Below are positions 5,324-13,070 of a DNA stretch of 64,000 bases, piece after piece. This DNA is from Acidobacteriota bacterium. Lineage in GTDB: Bacteria; Acidobacteriota; Blastocatellia; Pyrinomonadales; Pyrinomonadaceae. The DNA lies in assembly GCA_031411895.1 (NCBI GenBank), contig JANOBZ010000181.1, positions 2,998 through 66,997 of the forward strand, written 5' to 3'. The notes under the pieces were generated by a model that worked only from the letters and a program-made list of their open reading frames with translations, did no database searches and was not told where the DNA came from. The position numbers and the translations under genes are program-made. Every line of letters starts with the position of its first letter. Within the stretch, counting starts at the first letter, position 1.

Positions 5324-5533
5324 TCAGCGAGGAATTACGCCGCGCCGCGAGCGTCGGCTGAAATCGCGTTTGGCGAAAAAGTTTTTTTCCTCGCGCATCT
5401 GACATTCCCAGCAAACGATGCGTTTTTCATTGGTCGGGCTGACAAATTCGTAATAATTGTCCATCATCCGGTCGCATTCGGAACAACGGGCGGGCGGATT
5501 CGCGGTCTTATTGCTCAATTCTTCTTCGTTCAT
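5324..5533 (-). CDS. Small zinc-ribbon protein, hypothetical
   Basis: CSEC...CWEC cysteine pairs; ATGA overlap with upstream gene stop at 5530 (translational coupling). Confidence 0.5.
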   Translation of the reverse strand: MNEEELSNKTANPPARCSECDRMMDNYYEFVSPTNEKRIVCWECQMREEKNFFAKRDFSRRSRRGVIPR

Positions 5534-7074
5534 TTTTTCCTCAGTAATCTCAGTTTTTCAAGATAAAAATTTTTCGTTTCGACAATAGTGTAATTCGCTT
5601 CGACAAAATTTTCCAACGGTCGGCAACGCTCGCCGTTTTCACAGCTTTCGTCCGTCAGCAGCCAGACCTCGTTTGCTTCTGACGGGATTTCGGAAATGAC
5701 AAACTCCGCCTGTCGTTTCGCGCTTTCAGCCGTTTCCTGTTCCGATTCGAAGATCCATTGGAAAAATTTTTCATCCGGCAAAACTTTATTCGCGCCTTTG
5801 TAATAGACGGGAAGTGCGAGCGCGTCGTAATTCGGAAAAATTATGATCGGCTGACCGGGTTTTTCGTGCGCTTTCAAAAATGACGCAATGCGCTCCCAAT
5901 CACCGCGTTTTGTGAGATTGGGGTGAAGCGTAAAAACGGCGTAAGCGAAAAAAAACGCGACTAAAATCGCTAGACAAGCCGCTATCAAATTATTCGGGCG
6001 AAAAATATTTTTTCTCTTCGCGCCTTCGGTTAGCTCCGGCAACATTTCTTTTAGGATCAGCGAAACGAGTAAAATCATCGGCACGAATAAAACCGCCGCG
6101 TGACGAACCGCAATATATCTTCCGCCGAGCAAAAAATACGGCATCATAAAAAATGCGGCAATCGTCGCCGTGATCGCTGCGAAAGCGAGAATTTTTTCGT
6201 CAAAGATTTTGCGCGTTTTAATAAGAAAAACGATTGCCGCTAAAACCGCGATCCTCATTATCCATAATCTGAAAAAAGATATGTCGGAAATTTCTTTCGA
6301 TTCCGTCGGGAAAATTTCGGTCGGAAGAACGAACGTCAAAAAATAGCTCCAGAGCAGACGAACAAATTCAAACAAACTTTTTTCGGTGTGAAAACCCGAC
6401 GAACCGGCGGCAATCTGAGATTTTATCGCCCACAAAAGCGGCAGAAAAAACAAACCGGCGACGAGCATCTGCAGAAAATACTTTTTCGCCTCGTTCCATT
6501 TCCGCGTCACGAGCAAGGCGGCGAAACAACCCGCGAGCAAAAATCCGAGATAATAATTTGTATAAAGCGCAATGATCGAAACCGATATAAAAACGATCTC
6601 GAATCGCCTCTGACGTTCTGCGTTTCGGCGGTTCAAAAAAATATCCGAGAACAAATTCAGAATCACGACCGACAAAAAAATCACCGGCGAATAAAGTCGG
6701 ATTTCCAGACTCGCCCAGATCAGATACGGGTGCAGCGCGAAAAAAGCGGTTGCGAAAAATGACGCTTTTTCATCGAAAAATTTTCGCGCCAGACGGTAAA
6801 AAAAGATGATCGCCAGAACGGAAAAAATTATCGAAAGTAACCGCGCAAAGAAGATCGAATCACTCGCCGTGCGCCACAAACTCAGAATCCAGAAATAAAG
6901 CGGTGCTTGTTTTTCGATTGAAAAAGCATTGTTGACCGAATAAAGAAAACCGTTTCCCGTCGTGTACAGCGTCGAGGCTTCGTCAACCCAGATATTGACG
7001 AAATAAGCCATCGGCAGAGCGATGAGCGTATGCAGAAATACCAAAATTAAAATATTTTTCGGCGGTTTAATCAT
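5530..7074 (-). CDS. Integral-membrane glycosyltransferase, GT39/ArnT-PMT-like
   Basis: 514 aa, many TM helices in the N-terminal two thirds then a soluble C-terminal domain; architecture of dolichyl/undecaprenyl-phosphate-sugar-dependent glycosyltransferases. Confidence 0.75.
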   Translation of the reverse strand: MIKPPKNILILVFLHTLIALPMAYFVNIWVDEASTLYTTGNGFLYSVNNAFSIEKQAPLYFWILSLWRTASDSIFFARLLSIIFSVLAIIFFYRLARKFFDEKASFFATAFFALHPYLIWASLEIRLYSPVIFLSVVILNLFSDIFLNRRNAERQRRFEIVFISVSIIALYTNYYLGFLLAGCFAALLVTRKWNEAKKYFLQMLVAGLFFLPLLWAIKSQIAAGSSGFHTEKSLFEFVRLLWSYFLTFVLPTEIFPTESKEISDISFFRLWIMRIAVLAAIVFLIKTRKIFDEKILAFAAITATIAAFFMMPYFLLGGRYIAVRHAAVLFVPMILLVSLILKEMLPELTEGAKRKNIFRPNNLIAACLAILVAFFFAYAVFTLHPNLTKRGDWERIASFLKAHEKPGQPIIIFPNYDALALPVYYKGANKVLPDEKFFQWIFESEQETAESAKRQAEFVISEIPSEANEVWLLTDESCENGERCRPLENFVEANYTIVETKNFYLEKLRLLRKK

Positions 7075-7104
7075 CGGTAAATTTTGAAATAAATTTATAA
7101 AAAT

Positions 7105-8433
7105 TTATTTTGCCGGAGAAGGAAAATGTTCAACCAGACTGCCGACCTTTTTTCTCGTCCGCCAGTAAACGTCTTCCATAAAAATATGTGCAAACTCGCC
7201 GTTGCGCCCGATGCTCAAAAGATTTTCGATATTCGTCGAACGCTCGAAATTCTTCCGCGCCTGCTCGTATTCGTTCAGATAAACCGGATACGAAATCGGC
7301 GTCCGCAGAACGTTTGCGCCTAAGAAACGAGCGCGCGCGTCGGGAACGATTTCGGCGAGCGAATCGAGACACATTTCGGCGAGCTTCGTTTCGTCCATAT
7401 TCCAGATTTCGTCCGATTTTTCGCAGCCGATATCAGCCGTAATGATCGTCTTGCCTTCGGGCGCGAGCCACGGCATCGAAAGCGTCGCTTCGGTCAGGCG
7501 GAAAAACGGAAATTTCCGCTCGGGAAGCCACAAAACCGTGTCGGGAAGAAGTCCGCGCCCCGTAAATTTCAAGTTAACAAAAACCATCGGGCGATAGCGA
7601 AAATCCTTGAATTCGTCGAGCGCGTCGGTGCCGCTGACGAGCTTTGCGAGAATATTCGCGGGCGCGGTGCTGACGACCGCCGAAACTTCCCTGATTTCGC
7701 CTTTCGCTTTAACGGCGACGACGCGTTCATTTTCGACGATGATTTCTTCGACCGGCGATTCGAGCCGGATTTTATCATTGATGCCTTCGGCGAGTTTTTC
7801 GCAGAGCGTCGCGACGCCGCCCGCCGGGTAAACGTGATAGATGCCTGCCGATTCCGGCATTTCGCGATTGTAACCGCAGGCGACGGCGCGGCGCGTCACG
7901 CGGCTCGCGGCTTTTAGATAAAGCGTTTTACCGATGCTTCCGGGCAGAGATTCGCCGACCGCCGCCGACAAATCTTCGGCGCGCGCGCCCGACCAGGCTT
8001 CGACGAGCGGCAGCGCGACTTCGTCAGCCAGCGCCGCGCCGTAACTTTTGCGAAACCATTCGGCGGCGCTCTGCGGCGCGTGCCCGTTTCCCGACAATTT
8101 GCTTTTGATTCCGCTTAAGGTCATCCGCGCGATTTTCATCAAACCGAACGGGTAAGAATATGTTTTTTCGCCGAGCCTGACCGTTTCGCCGTAATGGCGA
8201 ACGGTCAAACAATCCGCGCTGACGCCGATCGCCGCCGCCAGACGATTGGTGATAAAATGCGCGCCGAAATCATACGAAAAACCTTCTTCGTCCTTAAAGC
8301 TCGCCGCCAGACCGGCGATTTTTTTTCCCGCTTCGTACAAAACGAACGGCACGTTTTGCCGCTCTAAATAATTAGCGGCTGTGAGTCCGGCAAGTCCCGC
8401 GCCGATAATGGCGATTGGTTTTTCGGTTTTCAT
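7105..8433 (-). CDS. FAD/NAD(P)-binding oxidoreductase (amine oxidase / phytoene desaturase-like)
   Basis: N-terminal IAIIGAGLAGLTAA...YEA dinucleotide-binding motif; about 440 aa. Confidence 0.8.
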   Translation of the reverse strand: MKTEKPIAIIGAGLAGLTAANYLERQNVPFVLYEAGKKIAGLAASFKDEEGFSYDFGAHFITNRLAAAIGVSADCLTVRHYGETVRLGEKTYSYPFGLMKIARMTLSGIKSKLSGNGHAPQSAAEWFRKSYGAALADEVALPLVEAWSGARAEDLSAAVGESLPGSIGKTLYLKAASRVTRRAVACGYNREMPESAGIYHVYPAGGVATLCEKLAEGINDKIRLESPVEEIIVENERVVAVKAKGEIREVSAVVSTAPANILAKLVSGTDALDEFKDFRYRPMVFVNLKFTGRGLLPDTVLWLPERKFPFFRLTEATLSMPWLAPEGKTIITADIGCEKSDEIWNMDETKLAEMCLDSLAEIVPDARARFLGANVLRTPISYPVYLNEYEQARKNFERSTNIENLLSIGRNGEFAHIFMEDVYWRTRKKVGSLVEHFPSPAK

Positions 8434-8476
8434 AACCTTATAAAGTCTTAATTAAACAAAATTTGTAAGAATTATT

Positions 8477-8542
8477 AGCCGCGGATTTCGCGGATTTTTA
8501 ATTTATTGATTTAATCCGCGTTATCTGCGTTTATCCGCGGCT
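8477..8542. repeat. Tandem-unit hairpin element (AGCC-CGCGGAT family)
   Basis: AGCCGCGGATTTCGCGGAT - loop - ATCCGCGTTATCTGCGTTTATCCGCGGCT; overlaps the stop of CDS 8541..9500. Confidence 0.9.
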
Positions 8543-9500
8543 AAATCTCTTCCGGTTTCTGCAAAGTCGCCCGCAGCAGCGCGCCTTTGCCGAGCTTCTG
8601 TAAAAGTATGTCGAGCGATGTAAAAGCCGACAGCGAAACGGTTGATTTAAGCGTAAAACTATTGATTAAAAAGCGCGGCGCTCGGAGATCAACGAGTGCG
8701 TTGTGAATCGAATAAACCCAGTTGACGGGCGAAACCTGCGTTGTTAAATCCGCCACGCCGAACCCGCATTTTTCGGCTAATTTCGTTAAGGATTTACGGT
8801 TAAAAAGATTCCAGTGGCGCGGAAAGTGATAGCCGCCCCAGTAGGAATTTTTGAAAAGCGAAAAATCCAGCGAATCCGTGTTATCCGTTACGACGACGAG
8901 CCGCGCGCCGGGTTTGAGGATTTTCAAAACCGCCGCGAGAACCTTTTCGGGATGAGCGACGTGTTCGATCGTCTGGATCATAAACGCGAAATCGTAAGTA
9001 TTTTCGGGCAGGTCAAGCGTTTCGACCGTTCCGAGATGCACTTTCAGACCCGTTTTTTCCGCCATCTGCGCGGCGCGTTCGTCAACATCAATGCCTTCGA
9101 GCCGCCACGTTTTATTGCCGTATTCCTTTAAAAGATTAAGATGAAACCCGTCGCCGCAGCCGACATCGAGAATTTTCGCATTATCGGGCAAATCTTTGCA
9201 CCAGCTTAAAACGCGTTTCGCTTCGAGCCGCGAACGGATTTTGTAAACAAAGCCGAAATCTTTTTCGGAAAAATCGAACGCGTGATAATTTGCCGGGTAA
9301 ATCGTTTCAAATTCGCTAATCTCGGGACGCGGATTTAAGTAAACCAGATCGCAAACTGTGCACTGCATCGCGACGAAAGAATCCTTGCTCGTGCGGTATT
9401 CGAAATCTTCGCCGACGCCGACCGGCGCGGCTTCGCCGCCATCGCAAACGCAGCACGCGACGTGCGCCAGCTTTAATTTTTTTTCGCTCAAGTTTTCCAT
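8541..9500 (-). CDS. Class I SAM-dependent methyltransferase with N-terminal Cys4 zinc ribbon
   Basis: CCVCDG...CTVCDLVY cysteines then ILDVGCGDG SAM motif I. Confidence 0.85.
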   Translation of the reverse strand: MENLSEKKLKLAHVACCVCDGGEAAPVGVGEDFEYRTSKDSFVAMQCTVCDLVYLNPRPEISEFETIYPANYHAFDFSEKDFGFVYKIRSRLEAKRVLSWCKDLPDNAKILDVGCGDGFHLNLLKEYGNKTWRLEGIDVDERAAQMAEKTGLKVHLGTVETLDLPENTYDFAFMIQTIEHVAHPEKVLAAVLKILKPGARLVVVTDNTDSLDFSLFKNSYWGGYHFPRHWNLFNRKSLTKLAEKCGFGVADLTTQVSPVNWVYSIHNALVDLRAPRFLINSFTLKSTVSLSAFTSLDILLQKLGKGALLRATLQKPEEI

Positions 9501-9501
9501 C

Positions 9502-10476
9502 TTAAGCCGCTGCTTCGATCTCCGAAAAATTGCGCGTCGGAATTTCGCCGCTCCGCACCGACGCGGCGTGTTTCTGCATATTGACGACCTCGAATTTATC
9601 GGTGAACGCCTCGAGAATCTCGCCGACGAATTCGAGTTTTTTCTCGATCGGCAGATTCATCGCCGGAAAAAACTTCAGTTCCGGCGCGTCTTCACCCGAA
9701 AGAAAATCGAGCGGATGAAGCAATAAACTCAACTCCGTTCCGGTCAATCTGCACATTTCGAGCGCCGTTTTCCAGTACGCTTTCGCCGCGAATTTTGAAA
9801 ACGTCGAAAGATAAATCACATAGGAAGCGTGAATCGGCGTTTTAAAGATCGGCAGCGTCGTAACGGGAATTTCAGTCAAAGATTTTTCGCCGATCTGCCA
9901 CCGATAAGGTTTTAACGACTGAAACCCGTCCGAAAATTTACCGAACAGCTTTTTGCGTTTTTCCTTTTCTTCCGGCGACATTTCGGGCGATTTGAAAAAA
10001 TAATAAGCTCTTGCCAAAGGCGCGATGTAGGTCGGCAGCGTCGAACAGTCGTATTCATAATCGCGTTCGGCTAAAACTTCCAAAACCGTCGGACTTAACG
10101 AATAACCCGGACCGCGAAAACCAACCGGTCTTTGTCCGGTAATTTTTTCGAGCGCGTTTTCCGTCTTTTCAAATTCTTCGACGAGTTCCTGTTTCGAGTA
10201 AAGATGCAGCCACGGCTCATGCCGGAAACTATGATTGCCGATTTCGTGTCCGGCGTCGGCGATTTGCCGGATCGCGTCCGCGTTTTTCTCCAATGCCGCG
10301 TCCTGCCCGACGATAAAAAACGTGATCCGCAAATCTCTTTCCTTCAAAAACTTCAATACGCGCGGCACGCAAACGTCCAAATAAGACGGCAGCGATTCCC
10401 AGCCCGCATCGCCGTGCGTTTTCATATACGACCATTTATTGTCGAGGTCTAAACTAAGACTTGCTATCGGTTTCAT
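9502..10476 (-). CDS. Polysaccharide deacetylase family protein
   Basis: ITFFIVGQDA...GHEIGNHSFRHE NodB-type motifs. Confidence 0.85.
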   Translation of the reverse strand: MKPIASLSLDLDNKWSYMKTHGDAGWESLPSYLDVCVPRVLKFLKERDLRITFFIVGQDAALEKNADAIRQIADAGHEIGNHSFRHEPWLHLYSKQELVEEFEKTENALEKITGQRPVGFRGPGYSLSPTVLEVLAERDYEYDCSTLPTYIAPLARAYYFFKSPEMSPEEKEKRKKLFGKFSDGFQSLKPYRWQIGEKSLTEIPVTTLPIFKTPIHASYVIYLSTFSKFAAKAYWKTALEMCRLTGTELSLLLHPLDFLSGEDAPELKFFPAMNLPIEKKLEFVGEILEAFTDKFEVVNMQKHAASVRSGEIPTRNFSEIEAAA

Positions 10477-10485
10477 AAGATTTTT

Positions 10486-10556
10486 GCCACGAATTGCACG
10501 AATTACACGAATGTTTTTTTTGAATTTTATTCGTGTAATTCGTGCAATTCGTGGCT
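10486..10556. repeat. Tandem-unit hairpin element (AGCC-CACGAAT family)
   Basis: GCCACGAATTGCACGAATTACACGAAT - loop - ATTCGTGTAATTCGTGCAATTCGTGGCT; contains stop and last 9 codons of CDS 10527..11999. Confidence 0.9.
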
Positions 10557-11999
10557 AATAAATTTTTCGGCTAACTGCACCGTTTCGTTGACGTTCAAAG
10601 TTCCGTTCGTAATTTGCGCCGAATTGACGATAAAAACTCCGTCGAGCGAAGTTTTTACTTCGTGCAGATTCGCCGAATAATTTAATGTCGGAATCGGGAA
10701 AACCTGCCGGACGCGCGAGATTTTGAATTCCAAAACATCCGCGCGCAAAAAATGCGCGTACATTTTTTCGAGCGCCGCCGTGAAATTTTCTTCGATCTCG
10801 GCGTCCGTTTTGTCGAACAGTTCATCGTCGGGCGCGACGTATTTCGGCAGATAAACGAGCGCGTTGCCGCCGAACTCCTTTTTATCAACGAGCGCCGACA
10901 TCTCGATAATTCCCGTAAACGGCGTTTCGTCCGTGATGTTCGTGACGTAAAAATCCGACAAAGACTTTTTCATCAGAACCGACGCGCAGACAATGCCCTG
11001 ATATTTTATATTTTCTAATTTCGCTTTTTCTTCGGCAGATAATTGCGGGCAAATCTTTGCGGCGATTGTTGACGGGCAAGTTAAAATTACTTTATCGAAT
11101 TGGTCATTCGATTTCCGATTCGGGATTTCGGATTTCGGATTTCGTTGGTCAATTTCAGATTTCAGATTTGAAATTTGAAATTGATTTTGTAATTTATGAT
11201 CTGTAATTTGTAATTCAAATTCCTTTGCGTCTTCGCGTCTTTGCGACTTTGCGGGAAATATCTCTATTTTTTCGTCAATCGTTTCGATTCTTTCGACGCG
11301 CGAATTAAGTCTAATCTCAACACCTTTCGCTCTTAAGTGTTCGCCGAATCTTTCCAAAACTCGTGCGTAGCCGCCGCGCACGTAGCCGAACATTTCTTTC
11401 TTTAATCCCGAATTTCGCGCCGCGTACATTCTTTGGATCGTCGCCCAGATAAACGCGGCGCTCGTTTCGCGGTAGGCTTCGCCCAATTTGGCTTTCAAAA
11501 GCGGTCGCCACATTTTTTCAAACGTCCGTTTGCCCGAAAACTTTGTTAACCAGTCTTCGACCGAAATCTTTTCTAACGCTTTCCAGTCTTTAACGCGCGC
11601 AGCGTAAAAGATCGTGCCGCCGAGCCGGAATTTTGAAATTAAATCCAATGGCGGAAATTTCAAAAATTCGAGCGTGTTCGACATCGAAACGAGCTTGCCG
11701 TCGGTGTAAAATCCGGTTTTCGTTTCGACCCATTCAAATTCTTCGCCGAGACCAATTTCTTCGACGATTTTACGCGTAAACGAATCCGAAAGCAGCGTCA
11801 CGTGATAATGTTTGTCCCACGTAATGTCGCCGATCTGCCACGCGCTCGCAAGCCCGCCGATTTCATTTGCGGATTCAAAAACCGTCACCTGATTGCCCGC
11901 TTCGGTTAGCCGCAAAGCGAGCGTCAAACCGAGAAAACCCGAACCGACAATCGCGATTTTGGATTTTGGATTTTGGATTTTGGATTTTTCTGAATTCAT
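10527..11999 (-). CDS. FAD/NAD(P)-binding oxidoreductase (amine oxidase-like) with repeat-derived N-terminal extension, about 50-aa internal insert and C-terminal tail
   Basis: IAIVGSGFLGLTLA...FES dinucleotide motif; segments NPKSKIQNPKSKI, ...SNLKSEIDQRNPKSEIPNRKS... and ...SHELHELHE are encoded by tandem-repeat arrays. Confidence 0.8.
   Translation of the reverse strand: MNSEKSKIQNPKSKIAIVGSGFLGLTLALRLTEAGNQVTVFESANEIGGLASAWQIGDITWDKHYHVTLLSDSFTRKIVEEIGLGEEFEWVETKTGFYTDGKLVSMSNTLEFLKFPPLDLISKFRLGGTIFYAARVKDWKALEKISVEDWLTKFSGKRTFEKMWRPLLKAKLGEAYRETSAAFIWATIQRMYAARNSGLKKEMFGYVRGGYARVLERFGEHLRAKGVEIRLNSRVERIETIDEKIEIFPAKSQRREDAKEFELQITDHKLQNQFQISNLKSEIDQRNPKSEIPNRKSNDQFDKVILTCPSTIAAKICPQLSAEEKAKLENIKYQGIVCASVLMKKSLSDFYVTNITDETPFTGIIEMSALVDKKEFGGNALVYLPKYVAPDDELFDKTDAEIEENFTAALEKMYAHFLRADVLEFKISRVRQVFPIPTLNYSANLHEVKTSLDGVFIVNSAQITNGTLNVNETVQLAEKFISHELHELHE
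11107..11256. repeat. Concatenated single-arm tandem arrays inside a CDS
   Basis: (GATTTCG)n, (CAGATTT)2, (GAAATTT)2, (TGTAATT)3, (GCGTCTT/GCGACTT)n in series; translated in frame in CDS 10527..11999. Confidence 0.85.
11955..11989. repeat. (GGATTTT)4-5 heptamer array encoding the N-terminus of CDS 10527..11999
   Basis: GATTTTGGATTTTGGATTTTGGATTTTT read directly; gives SKIQNPKSKI. Confidence 0.9.
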
Positions 12000-12023
12000 C
12001 TTATTTGGAATTGAGAAAATGTT

Positions 12024-12383
12024 TTACCAAATTACAATTATGCCCTTTTTCTCTCTTGCTATTTGAACTGCATCTAAAATATTTTGCACTCGGGCTTTTA
12101 TGTACTCTTGCTCAAATCCCGATTCTTTTGAGAAAGCCTCCAGGTTTTCAATGATAGTTTTGAGTTCGCTTTCCAATTCATTTAATTGCTCACCACCGAC
12201 GTCCCATAAATCATGACTTTTTAATTGAGGTAAAAGCTTTAATCCTAAATTCTCCGCCAGTTCCGATCCGTATAACTTGTAGCGTGAACTTTCAAAGCCT
12301 GCTAAATCTCTGCCGTTGTCTAATTCAATATTAAATTTTTCATCATTATCGTCGTAGGCAAAAACACTCACCGATAAACTCAT
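12024..12383 (-). CDS. Hypothetical acidic protein in an AT-rich insert
   Basis: ORF 12024..12470; start moved to ATG 12383 (MSLSVSVFAYDDNDEKF), 1 nt after the upstream stop; visibly AT-richer than neighbours; no family recognised. Confidence 0.5.
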   Translation of the reverse strand: MSLSVSVFAYDDNDEKFNIELDNGRDLAGFESSRYKLYGSELAENLGLKLLPQLKSHDLWDVGGEQLNELESELKTIIENLEAFSKESGFEQEYIKARVQNILDAVQIAREKKGIIVIW

Positions 12384-12384
12384 T

Positions 12385-12987
12385 TTACAACTCTCGCACA
12401 TTTCGGTTTTCGATTTCGTATCGCAAACCGCAAACGCATTCAAATTCCTGCCGTTCCGAAGTTTCATCAAAGCGGTGAAAAAGCTGTCCGCATTTGCAGA
12501 CCGTGCCGACCGAACGCGCCGGACTGCCGATGACGAGATGAAAATCGGGAATCGTTTTCGTGACGACCGAACCCATTCCGACCATCGCCCAGCGTCCGAT
12601 CTCGAGATCGTTGCCGATCGTGCAGCCCGCGCCGATCGTCGCGCCTTCGCGCACCAAGGTCGGGAGAGTGTGTTCGTCAGGTTCCGACGGTCGCAAAGAT
12701 TTCAAATCCGGCATCGTCGCGCGCGGGAATTTATCGTTCGTAAAAGTCACGCTCGCCGAAATCATCACGCCGTCTTCGATCGAAACGGCGGCGCAGATAT
12801 AAACCATCGCGTTGATCTTTACGCGGTTGCCGATTTTTACGTCATACGCGATATAAGTTTTTTCGCCGACGATGCATTCTTCGCCGATTGTCGCGCCGTG
12901 GCGAATATGCACGTTGTCCCAAACGCTCGTGCCTTCGCCGATTTTAACGTCGTCTTCAATGATTGCCGTCGGATGAATTTTAACCAT
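12385..12987 (-). CDS. Left-handed beta-helix (hexapeptide) N-acetyltransferase, WbpD-like, with C-terminal Cys-rich extension
   Basis: Hexapeptide repeats (IGEGTSVWDNVHI, IGEECIVGEKTYI, IGNRVKINAMVYI); start at ATG 12987 (MVKIHPTAII) just 3' of a hairpin repeat. Confidence 0.8.
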   Translation of the reverse strand: MVKIHPTAIIEDDVKIGEGTSVWDNVHIRHGATIGEECIVGEKTYIAYDVKIGNRVKINAMVYICAAVSIEDGVMISASVTFTNDKFPRATMPDLKSLRPSEPDEHTLPTLVREGATIGAGCTIGNDLEIGRWAMVGMGSVVTKTIPDFHLVIGSPARSVGTVCKCGQLFHRFDETSERQEFECVCGLRYEIENRNVREL

Positions 12988-12996
12988 AAGATTTTT

Positions 12997-13070
12997 GCCC
13001 CGAACAAACACGAAAGAACACGAAAATTCTATTAAATTTATTTCGTGTCTTTTCGTGTTTTTTCGTGGCT
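12997..13070. repeat. Tandem-unit hairpin element (CACGAA family)
   Basis: GCCCCGAAcaaaCACGAAagaaCACGAA - loop - TTCGTGtcttTTCGTGttttTTCGTGGCT. Confidence 0.9.

Follow-up and report, generated by a model that had tools for sequence, protein, structure and literature searches.

Heptanucleotide repeats of the short tandemly repeated repetitive (STRR) type were reportedly described in cyanobacteria by Mazel et al. in 1990, and small dispersed repeats nested within tandem heptamer arrays of Nostoc are said to have been found by Elhai et al. in 2008. Rickettsia palindromic elements (RPE), which are single palindromes of ~100-150 bp belonging to defined sequence families, were reportedly recognized by Ogata et al. 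in 2000 as dispersed selfish repeats in conserved genes, translated in frame into additional surface segments that are compatible with the protein fold. Arrays of GGGAATC and GGGGA(C/T)T heptamers occur in Xanthomonas and Nostoc (Rehm et al. 2015, PMC4692102); these heptanucleotide simple sequence repeats (SSRs) have ~4 copies, occupy hundreds of mostly intergenic sites, form some inverted pairs and are more rarely found with the G-rich strand as coding strand (PMC4692102). Over-representation of heptamers in prokaryotes is credited to Mrazek et al. 2007, as cited in PMC4692102. Other points of reference are the repetitive extragenic palindrome (REP) and REPIN (paired REP) systems with their REP-associated tyrosine transposases (RAYT; PMC3116915), and PF05635, the family of the protein from the 23S rRNA intervening sequence (IVS), structurally related to Avd, the accessory protein of diversity-generating retroelements (DGR), and functionally uncharacterised (PMC10053308; bioRxiv 10.1101/2024.02.27.582315). 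A literature search on heptamer repeats in Acidobacteria or Pyrinomonadaceae found nothing. The window studied here, 64,000 nucleotides of a Pyrinomonadaceae (Acidobacteriota) metagenome-assembled genome (MAG) of 181 contigs (G000), contains on its minus strand the gene of a 490-aa flavin adenine dinucleotide (FAD)-dependent oxidoreductase (coding sequence, CDS, 10527..11999), and this gene holds an in-frame insert of ~48 aa built from concatenated repeat arrays, which is the subject of this work.

We consider it probable that the insert is repeat DNA translated as a near-neutral disordered loop, founded long ago, layered anew in each lineage and filtered by selection. The segment (~145-150 nt; translation PAKSQRREDAKEFELQITDHKLQNQFQISNLKSEIDQRNPKSEIPNRKSNDQ) extended the span between the two anchor strands to 72 aa, as compared to 24-33 aa in insert-free orthologues. 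On the coding strand the modules were ordered as an 8-mer array, an AATTACA-type array, a mini-hairpin and (CGAAATC)5. Arrays were detected with Tandem Repeats Finder (TRF), with coordinates given on the plus strand. The first module (11223..11253, minus strand; peptide AKSQRREDAK) has a period of 8 nt, with units GCAAAGTC, GCAAAGAC, GCGAAGAC and GCAAAGGA, or (GCAAAGNC)4, and was reported by TRF as 3.9 copies of CTTTGCGT at 11223-11253. The AATTACA-type array (11187..11219, minus strand; peptide ELQITDHKLQN) contains four units, one of them degenerate, and was detected as an ATTTGTA type with 7.4 copies at 11166-11215. The mini-hairpin, (AATTTCA)2/(AATCTGA)2 (11147..11186; 40 nt, 18 bp), is read as QFQISNLKSEI, and AATTTCA was found 4.6 times at 11151-11182. 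The terminal (CGAAATC)5 array (11107..11144, minus strand; peptide RNPKSEIPNRKS) belongs to the dominant heptamer family of the genome and appeared as GATTTCG in 5.0 copies at 11110-11144, together with a GATTTCA type in 6.7 copies at 11124-11169. A sequence-only reading of the window had described five heptamer arrays translated in frame within this gene; TRF agreed with it, except that the array taken for GCGTCTT/GCGACTT units has a period of 8 and not 7 nt and that the TGTAATT array holds four units (one degenerate) instead of three. The translations quoted there for the insert and for an array at the N-terminus were exact, and so was the remark on a near-palindrome whose mismatches are G-T on the plus strand: the hairpin at 11147-11186 formed 18 pairs on that strand including G-T (-18.9 kcal/mol, z -6.3), with an A-C or internal mismatch and -13.3 kcal/mol on the mRNA strand.

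Within G000 the 8-mer, CGAAATC and AAAATCC families were abundant (the 8-mer family, CGCAAAGA, had ~195 two-unit sites at ≤1 mismatch, mostly intergenic), the AATTACA family was rare elsewhere and the sequence of the hairpin module was unique. The AATTACA and hairpin modules, being essentially unique in this genome, are therefore inherited. With five families in ~145 nt, the locus was the richest repeat cluster internal to an open reading frame (ORF) in G000, and only five loci in the whole genome contained at least three array families.

The host protein matched NF005560/PRK07233, of amine-oxidase, protoporphyrinogen-oxidase and phytoene-desaturase fold, with 467.9 bits (cut-off 252, E 3e-140), and the two matched stretches flanked ~50 omitted residues. 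Pfam returned Amino_oxidase (E 4.5e-28) plus Rossmann domains, and the Rossmann GxGxxG sequence IAIVGSGFLG was invariant across 64 orthologues. The frame was open across 490 codons and in all orthologues examined, the flanks were conserved, and the core was 80-91% identical to that of relatives, many residues being invariant. The gene into which this segment is inserted in frame is intact and conserved. Among 5.8 billion proteins the closest was 83% identical and the exact-sequence cluster was a singleton. The paralogue at 7105..8433, 26% identical, contained no insert of such kind, as had been noted from the sequence.

An AlphaFold2 (AF2) model built from a 64-sequence alignment gave a mean predicted local distance difference test (pLDDT) of 86.4 and a predicted template modelling (pTM) score of 0.86, the regions that flank the insert being predicted confidently, and Foldseek related this prediction to 2IVE and 5MOG (TM 0.7-0.79; protoporphyrinogen oxidase or phytoene desaturase likeness). 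Residues 257-291, between β-strands 244-249 and 299-306, had pLDDT <50, and the first nine residues were also of low confidence. The insert was rich in Q, K, S, E and N, with a mean hydropathy of -1.71. It is predicted to be a disordered surface loop between two β-strands of the FAD-binding domain, a placement in a surface loop that the sequence-only reading had proposed; we take it to be translated and near-neutral for enzyme function. An intron, an intein or a known RNA was rejected as its identity, since an Rfam scan of the insert matched no intron or known RNA. Insensitivity to frame was also rejected: both other frames contain stops, so that compensating unit changes between arrays would be unreadable.

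The history of the loop was followed in 96 loci and 120 database proteins (~200 orthologues overall), on a tree computed minus the insert columns, in which the order among the no-insert, 21-member and 44-member clades is not fixed. The anchor span, from ..RIE.. to FDxVILT, measured 24-33 aa in outgroups and in the no-insert clade, and the basal lineages of the tree were free of the insert. In the 44-member clade of the focal gene the span was hypervariable (25-98 aa); almost all members retained some insert, which was cleanly lost in L042, L069 and L077. The modules AK(T/S)QRRE.., ELQI.D.KLQN and FEISNLKSEI were common to relatives at 80-91% core identity, and the 8-mer module, present in most clade members, was the most widely shared. 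DNA alignment gave the same module order (8-mer, AATTACA, hairpin, terminal heptamer) for G000, P0006 (core 83%), L024 and L002, and the hairpin module was missing from P0002. The terminal array was (CGAAATC)5 in G000, (CGCAATC)4 in P0006, which among the relatives sharing this arrangement is the nearest, and of the GAAGACC type (EDQRPKTEDR) in many others. Lineage specificity, earlier expected for the whole insert, held only for (CGAAATC)5 or its unit; the middle modules are shared, and the loop is occupied across a large Pyrinomonadaceae clade.

Insert content tracks the repeat repertoire of each genome. A palindrome, GAACCnCCTGCGGTAGCGGGnGGTT (25-29 nt; peptide SEPPAVAGG or SEPPAVAGGLS), interrupted the 8-mer array in L024, L002 and L003 and was found at another insert position in L004. 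Copies of this PPAVAGG palindrome numbered 214 in G006, 111 in G014 and 51 in G017, whose orthologues carry it, and 6 in G000 and 0 in G012, whose orthologues are without it. Sites of (CGAAATC)3 amounted to 312 in G000 vs. 78, 71, 25 and 13 in the four congeners just named. The idea that genomes with a high load of arrays are also those with the loop insert was rejected: no correlation was found, and the array-rich G001, G016 and G007 have insert-free orthologues. In G006, G014 and G017 the PPAVAGG palindrome often formed REPIN-like inverted doublets 40-120 nt apart (G014:C1:1930-2000; G006:C14:26921-27017).

A sister clade (21 members, loci L058-L095, Pyrinomonadaceae and 'Chloracidobacterium sp.' MAGs) contained at the same loop a conserved, non-repetitive insert of ~55 aa, with the consensus A.RRR.D.K....PQKTKYA.FQ.A.AVA.GFSGAFLSEP, which is kept through synonymous changes. 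The sequence-only reading had held that a homologous non-repetitive segment in orthologues would speak against a lineage-specific repeat insert, and this clade comes close to that case. The start of the conserved insert (A.RRR.D.K) matched the translation of the 8-mer array, AKTRRRED being the exact in-frame translation of (GCGAAGAC)n, and L072 had ACGCGAAGATGCAAAA at the position where G000 has ACGCGAAGACGCAAAG. From these two matches we infer that an 8-mer array was the founder of the insert and would be older than the split of these clades. The sister-clade insert may be repeat-derived sequence now under constraint. A folded, exapted domain in this clade was rejected, as AF2 gave pLDDT <50 for the conserved insert.

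A second array lies at the start of the same protein. The perfect (AAAATCC)4.9 array at 11955..11988 (minus strand; TRF, GATTTTG x4.9, 100% matches) encodes KSKIQNPKSKI (MNSEKSKIQNPKSKI) immediately before IAIVGSG, in agreement with the (GGATTTT) array that had been placed there. Between the ATG at 11999 and the GxGxxG motif there was no other in-frame start; therefore, the N-terminal array is within the coding sequence. Orthologous N-terminal arrays shared their register and always had five units, differing in unit sequence: AAAATCC in G000, L021, L025 and L008, GAAATCC in P0002, and GCAATCC in L007 and L070. The array was decayed in L009, L011 and L013, and was not present in L024, L002, L060 and P0006, the last with a single AAAATC left. 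Thus, in the N-terminal array and in the C-terminal array of the insert alike, the orthologue comparison showed the unit changed in all copies at once. Four-fold-site identity between G000 and the relatives in the N-terminal comparison was 56-73%; perfect arrays with parallel changes of all units, set against diverged four-fold sites, point to concerted evolution (slippage or conversion) and not to independent point mutation.

Arrays of this kind were widespread in the genome. Period-7 arrays in G000 numbered 912 at a score of at least 40 and 1614 at a score of at least 30, vs. 0 and 205, respectively, in a simulated third-order Markov genome, and the commonest units were AAATCCG, AAAATCC and AAATCCC. 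On a crude ORF map, 504 of the 912 arrays fell outside ORFs, 164 at ORF edges and 244 inside; 55% were located in the 15% of the genome lying outside these ORFs. Of the arrays with stop-free units, 38% (186/492) were located inside ORFs, as compared to 18% when the unit has a stop on one strand and 1.7% (2/116) when both strands have stops. The arithmetic of stop-free units in the sequence-only reading was correct, and this distribution is the expectation from random orientation plus a filter for openness. Survival limited to open arrays, as proposed there, is only part of the picture, because other filters also operate. Deep intragenic arrays, defined as having at least 100 ORF codons on both sides, numbered 96 in G000. 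In the 72 deep arrays with fully stop-free units the A-rich strand was read in 61 and the T-rich strand in 11 (p 1.5e-9). Peptides of the A-rich strand (KSEIRNP, KIQNPKS, KSQIPNP) had hydropathies of ~-1.5 to -1.9, and those of the T-rich strand (RISDFGF, GFWILDF) of +0.1 to +1.3. Arrays in spacers between co-directional genes presented no orientation bias (88:82). An inverted partner within 150 nt accompanied 14% of the deep intragenic arrays, 86% thus being solo arms, vs. 64% of the intergenic ones (p 1e-20).

The proposal that the arrays insert freely was not borne out: there was no target-site duplication signal, and orthologous arrays differed by unit turnover, not by presence or absence. 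Because this signal is missing, insertion is unproven as a mechanism. A candidate duplication at the focal locus, TGACCAA on both flanks of (CGAAATC)5, was rejected, as P0006 is without the second copy. A link to RAYT or IS200 elements was rejected too, the five PF01797 (Y1_Tnp) matches in G000 not being consistently flanked by arrays. Across the genus, NNAATCC x4 arrays were present in all 17 genomes, at 39 (G012) to 1881 (G009) sites, a ~50-fold range. The dominant unit varied by genome, being for example GCAATCC in G020 and G024.

The process that we favor would draw its DNA from the repeat families, short-unit tandem arrays and small palindromes, with which the intergenic spacers of the genus are filled. 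The loop would first have been colonised by an 8-mer array, read as AKTQRRED, in the ancestor of the large clade, and each lineage would later have remodelled it from its own repeat repertoire, in G000 presumably by expansion or replacement with the dominant CGAAATC heptamer, the units within an array being kept alike by slippage or conversion. Persistence in a gene would require that the read strand be stop-free and the net length change divisible by three. It would further require an A-rich coding strand, giving K/S/E/I/R/N/P/Q peptides and not D/F/G/W/L ones, and an arm that is alone or whose hairpin is weakened, placed where a loop, a linker or a terminus tolerates it.

Several observations weigh against this account. 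FEISNLKSEI was nearly invariant in many relatives and more conserved than its neighbours, and the conserved insert of the sister clade indicates that sequence at this site can become constrained. The perfect N-terminal array was identical across species with 61-70% four-fold-site identity. For this array as for FEISNLKSEI, selection acting on the DNA, the RNA or the peptide may be the reason instead of neutrality. Flank repeats of at least 7 nt around arrays were no more frequent genome-wide than in permuted controls (25 vs. ~19), and the genome-wide counts were obtained with a crude longest-ORF map in which 85% of the sequence is coding.

The first two of these points also favor a functional protein element, for example a flexible loop for docking, membrane association or regulation, whose repeat origin would be only history. 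We regard this as unlikely. The 21-member sister clade has retained its ~55-aa insert with the motifs RRR.D.K, TKYA and GFSGAFLSEP conserved through synonymous changes, and nearly all members of the focal clade hold some insert. However, within the focal clade both span (25-98 aa) and content are very variable and clean losses have occurred (L042, L069, L077); AF2 gives no fold for either the focal or the conserved insert, and the same peptides are found in unrelated proteins.

An equally improbable alternative is that the arrays are kept for a function of the DNA or RNA, as sites for PF05635-type or nucleoid proteins, antisense terminators or RNase III targets, with their translation incidental. 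Conservation of the N-terminal array as DNA despite 61-70% four-fold-site identity agrees with such a function, as do the hairpin, which pairs best on the antisense strand and resembles a terminator there, and the presence around every PF05635 gene of cognate heptamer arms (~4.6 units) that are specific to it. Against it, the orientation bias is seen in genes but not in co-transcribed spacers, which argues for a filter at the level of the peptide; the middle modules of the insert are unique in the genome; and terminator-like matches in the region (6 vs. 3.6 ± 2.0 in shuffles) were not in excess.

A contingency (phase-variation) switch, in which gain or loss of one 7-nt unit would shift the frame and turn the gene off, seems to us very improbable. 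A unit of 7 nt is not divisible by three, the array at the N-terminus has no imperfections, and 81 of the 244 ORF-internal arrays lie in the first tenth of their ORF; an excess of SSRs close to the N-terminus is recognized as a mark of phase variation (Lin and Kussell, cited in PMC4692102). Nevertheless, the arrays are short, at ~4-5 units, and for the most part contain imperfections, the orthologous arrays at the N-terminus have exactly five units with all examined orthologues in frame, and essential housekeeping genes are among the array hosts. A pseudogene or an assembly artefact is scarcely credible: the MAG is in 181 contigs and assemblers can be misled by repeats, but 490 codons are open between conserved flanks with a confident fold on both sides of the insert, homologous modules follow in the same order in the independent assemblies P0006, L024, L002 and L003, and the arrays (35-45 nt) are shorter than one read.

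As to the origin of the repeat DNA that our translated, near-neutral loop would have taken up, the array families are associated with PF05635 genes. Six of the seven such genes in G000, and 22 of 25 in G017, G001 and G009, were enclosed between an array and an inverted copy of it, against a baseline of 8% of all G000 ORFs with arrays on both sides. The arms of these cassettes consist of ~4-5 (about 4.6) tandem units of 7-11 nt, with a different unit for each gene copy. In G000 the cassettes with a PF05635 gene between inverted arrays were C176:43069-43506, C57:4538-4990, C68:14375-14817, C122:31018-31493, C171:60131-60595 and C150:34537-35013, and those of congeners were loci L117-L145. The arms of C176:43069-43506 are GATTTCG and AAAATCC, both heptamer families of the focal gene, and a G017 cassette has arms GCGGAGAC sharing 7/8 bases with the focal 8-mer unit; the AATTACA and hairpin modules had no match among cassette arms. 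The G000 families AAACCTG, AACAATT and AAAAAGT were without a resident cassette in this genome, but cassettes with them were found in congeners. On a possible link to reverse transcriptases, RVT_1 had a single match in G000, at a contig end and thus uninformative. We infer that hairpins and solo arms descend from PF05635 cassettes. More tentatively, it is possible that the focal arrays are solo arms released from PF05635 (Avd-like four-helix-bundle) cassettes of an undescribed class, each paralogue with its cognate unit, and that the cassette protein or an RNA-level, IVS-like process recognises the unit and spreads or homogenises it genome-wide. This would explain the presence of one heptamer at hundreds of unrelated loci, the genome-specific dominant units and the switches of unit in all copies; genes would then be collateral targets, filtered by translation. 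No published description of a PF05635 cassette with inverted tandem-array arms was found.

The 3' end of the focal gene carries a further repeat structure. The stop codon is spanned by a perfect hairpin (10478..10565), whose stem of 27-28 bp is made of 9-mer CACGAATTA arrays and which encodes the C-terminal tail HELHELHE; TRF located its arms at 10488-10512 and 10529-10553, and it folded with -45.6 to -47.6 kcal/mol (z ~-12 to -13). Rfam returned only sub-threshold generic hairpin matches for this segment. In G017 (locus L138, C1:4449721-4453032) the spacer downstream of the orthologue, between the oxidoreductase and the deacetylase, is occupied by a complete PF05635 cassette bounded by (TTTTTAA)n arms, exactly at the site of the gene-less 9-mer hairpin in G000. 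The tail of that orthologue, QLKIKN, and its stop codon are provided by an AATTAAA array.

Other genes in G000 host arrays as well. Ten hosts were real genes by Pfam (PrmA, an FAD-linked oxidase, an SMC hinge, an SLT transglycosylase, an aspartokinase-homoserine dehydrogenase, AcrB, a MutL linker, a Ser/Thr kinase, MoeA and a VWA-domain protein), and domain matches covered or bracketed the array in nine of them; in the VWA-domain protein the sole Pfam match comes after the array. They included PrmA (C135:7411-8361), the SMC hinge (C12:20220-24035), the MutL linker (C65:4995-7040), MoeA (C137:28505-29746), AcrB (C103:59887-63276) and the aspartokinase-homoserine dehydrogenase (C18:9135-11603). 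KSKIQNPKSKI or IRNPKSEI occurred in frame in conserved housekeeping proteins, partly inside Pfam domains and not in linkers only. Paralogues with a Ser/Thr kinase and tetratricopeptide repeats (TPR), of ~830-960 aa, had in-frame heptamer arrays inside the kinase domain, at aa ~311-350, before ..L(R/K)GDLD (C79:22962-25712, C120:7376-10129, C133:49194-51803, C150:65331-68075, C76:72535-75267, C111:16579-19218, C135:15647-18139 and C26:16049-18925). Both arms were translated in five of these kinase-TPR paralogues (..IWDFGFRISD.. and then ..NPKSQIPNPKS..), and the group explains many of the rare T-rich-arm translations.

The focal oxidoreductase is clustered on its strand, at positions 5530-13011 of the window, with genes for a PMT_2 glycosyltransferase, another FAD oxidoreductase, an S-adenosylmethionine (SAM) methyltransferase, a polysaccharide deacetylase and a hexapeptide acyltransferase. 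This neighbourhood suggests a pathway of glycan or lipid modification.

The locus is a well-resolved natural experiment on how repeat DNA, selfish or prone to slippage, turns into protein, and a single loop can be traced in it: empty in outgroups, presumably colonised by the 8-mer, layered with heptamers and palindromes, lost in one clade and fixed in another. Rules of survival (an open frame, the hydrophilic strand, a solo arm) help in the annotation of such segments, often dismissed as errors or low-complexity noise, and bear on how disordered loops and linkers originate. The association with PF05635 opens to experiment why there are hundreds of identical heptamer arrays and what IVS- or Avd-like proteins do outside DGR.

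Compared to the systems introduced at the beginning, the host enzyme shares with the PRK07233, protoporphyrinogen-oxidase and phytoene-desaturase enzymes the same hidden Markov model family, the GxGxxG motif and the fold of 2IVE and 5MOG, its identity to the solved structures being only 13-17%. With long SSRs the G000 arrays have in common tandem 7-nt units, an intergenic excess, inverted pairs and an under-representation of the G-rich strand as coding strand. Their units (AAATCCG, AAAATCC, AAATCCC) are no rotation or complement of GGGAATC or GGGGAYT and are not known to be one of STRR1-3; descriptions of long SSRs are without in-frame translation, a solo-arm filter or a PF05635 link, and the phylum here is Acidobacteriota. 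Most G000 units have only G2 tracts, and a G-quadruplex is for this reason not a general explanation. Like RPE, the array families of G000 are both intergenic and in frame in conserved genes at tolerant positions, whereas the focal insert differs from RPE in combining several concatenated families of 7-8-nt tandem units, counted as four solo arrays, with a 40-nt hairpin, mostly as solo arms and with concerted turnover. The PPAVAGG palindrome inside the 8-mer array (L002, L024), with its inverted doublets in G006 and G014, resembles the nested repeats of Nostoc and REPIN. In contrast to REP and REPIN, there is no association of Y1_Tnp with arrays, there are no target-site duplications, and heptamer arrays are not single hairpins. 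As in the 23S rRNA IVS, a PF05635 gene is enclosed by a long stem; unlike the IVS, the G000 copies lie between protein genes and were not seen in rRNA genes, their stems are tandem arrays, and gene-less hairpins and solo arms far outnumber the cassettes. What distinguishes this locus from the known systems is its nest of five modules, a history followed across ~200 orthologues, quantitative rules of survival and the link to PF05635 cassettes.

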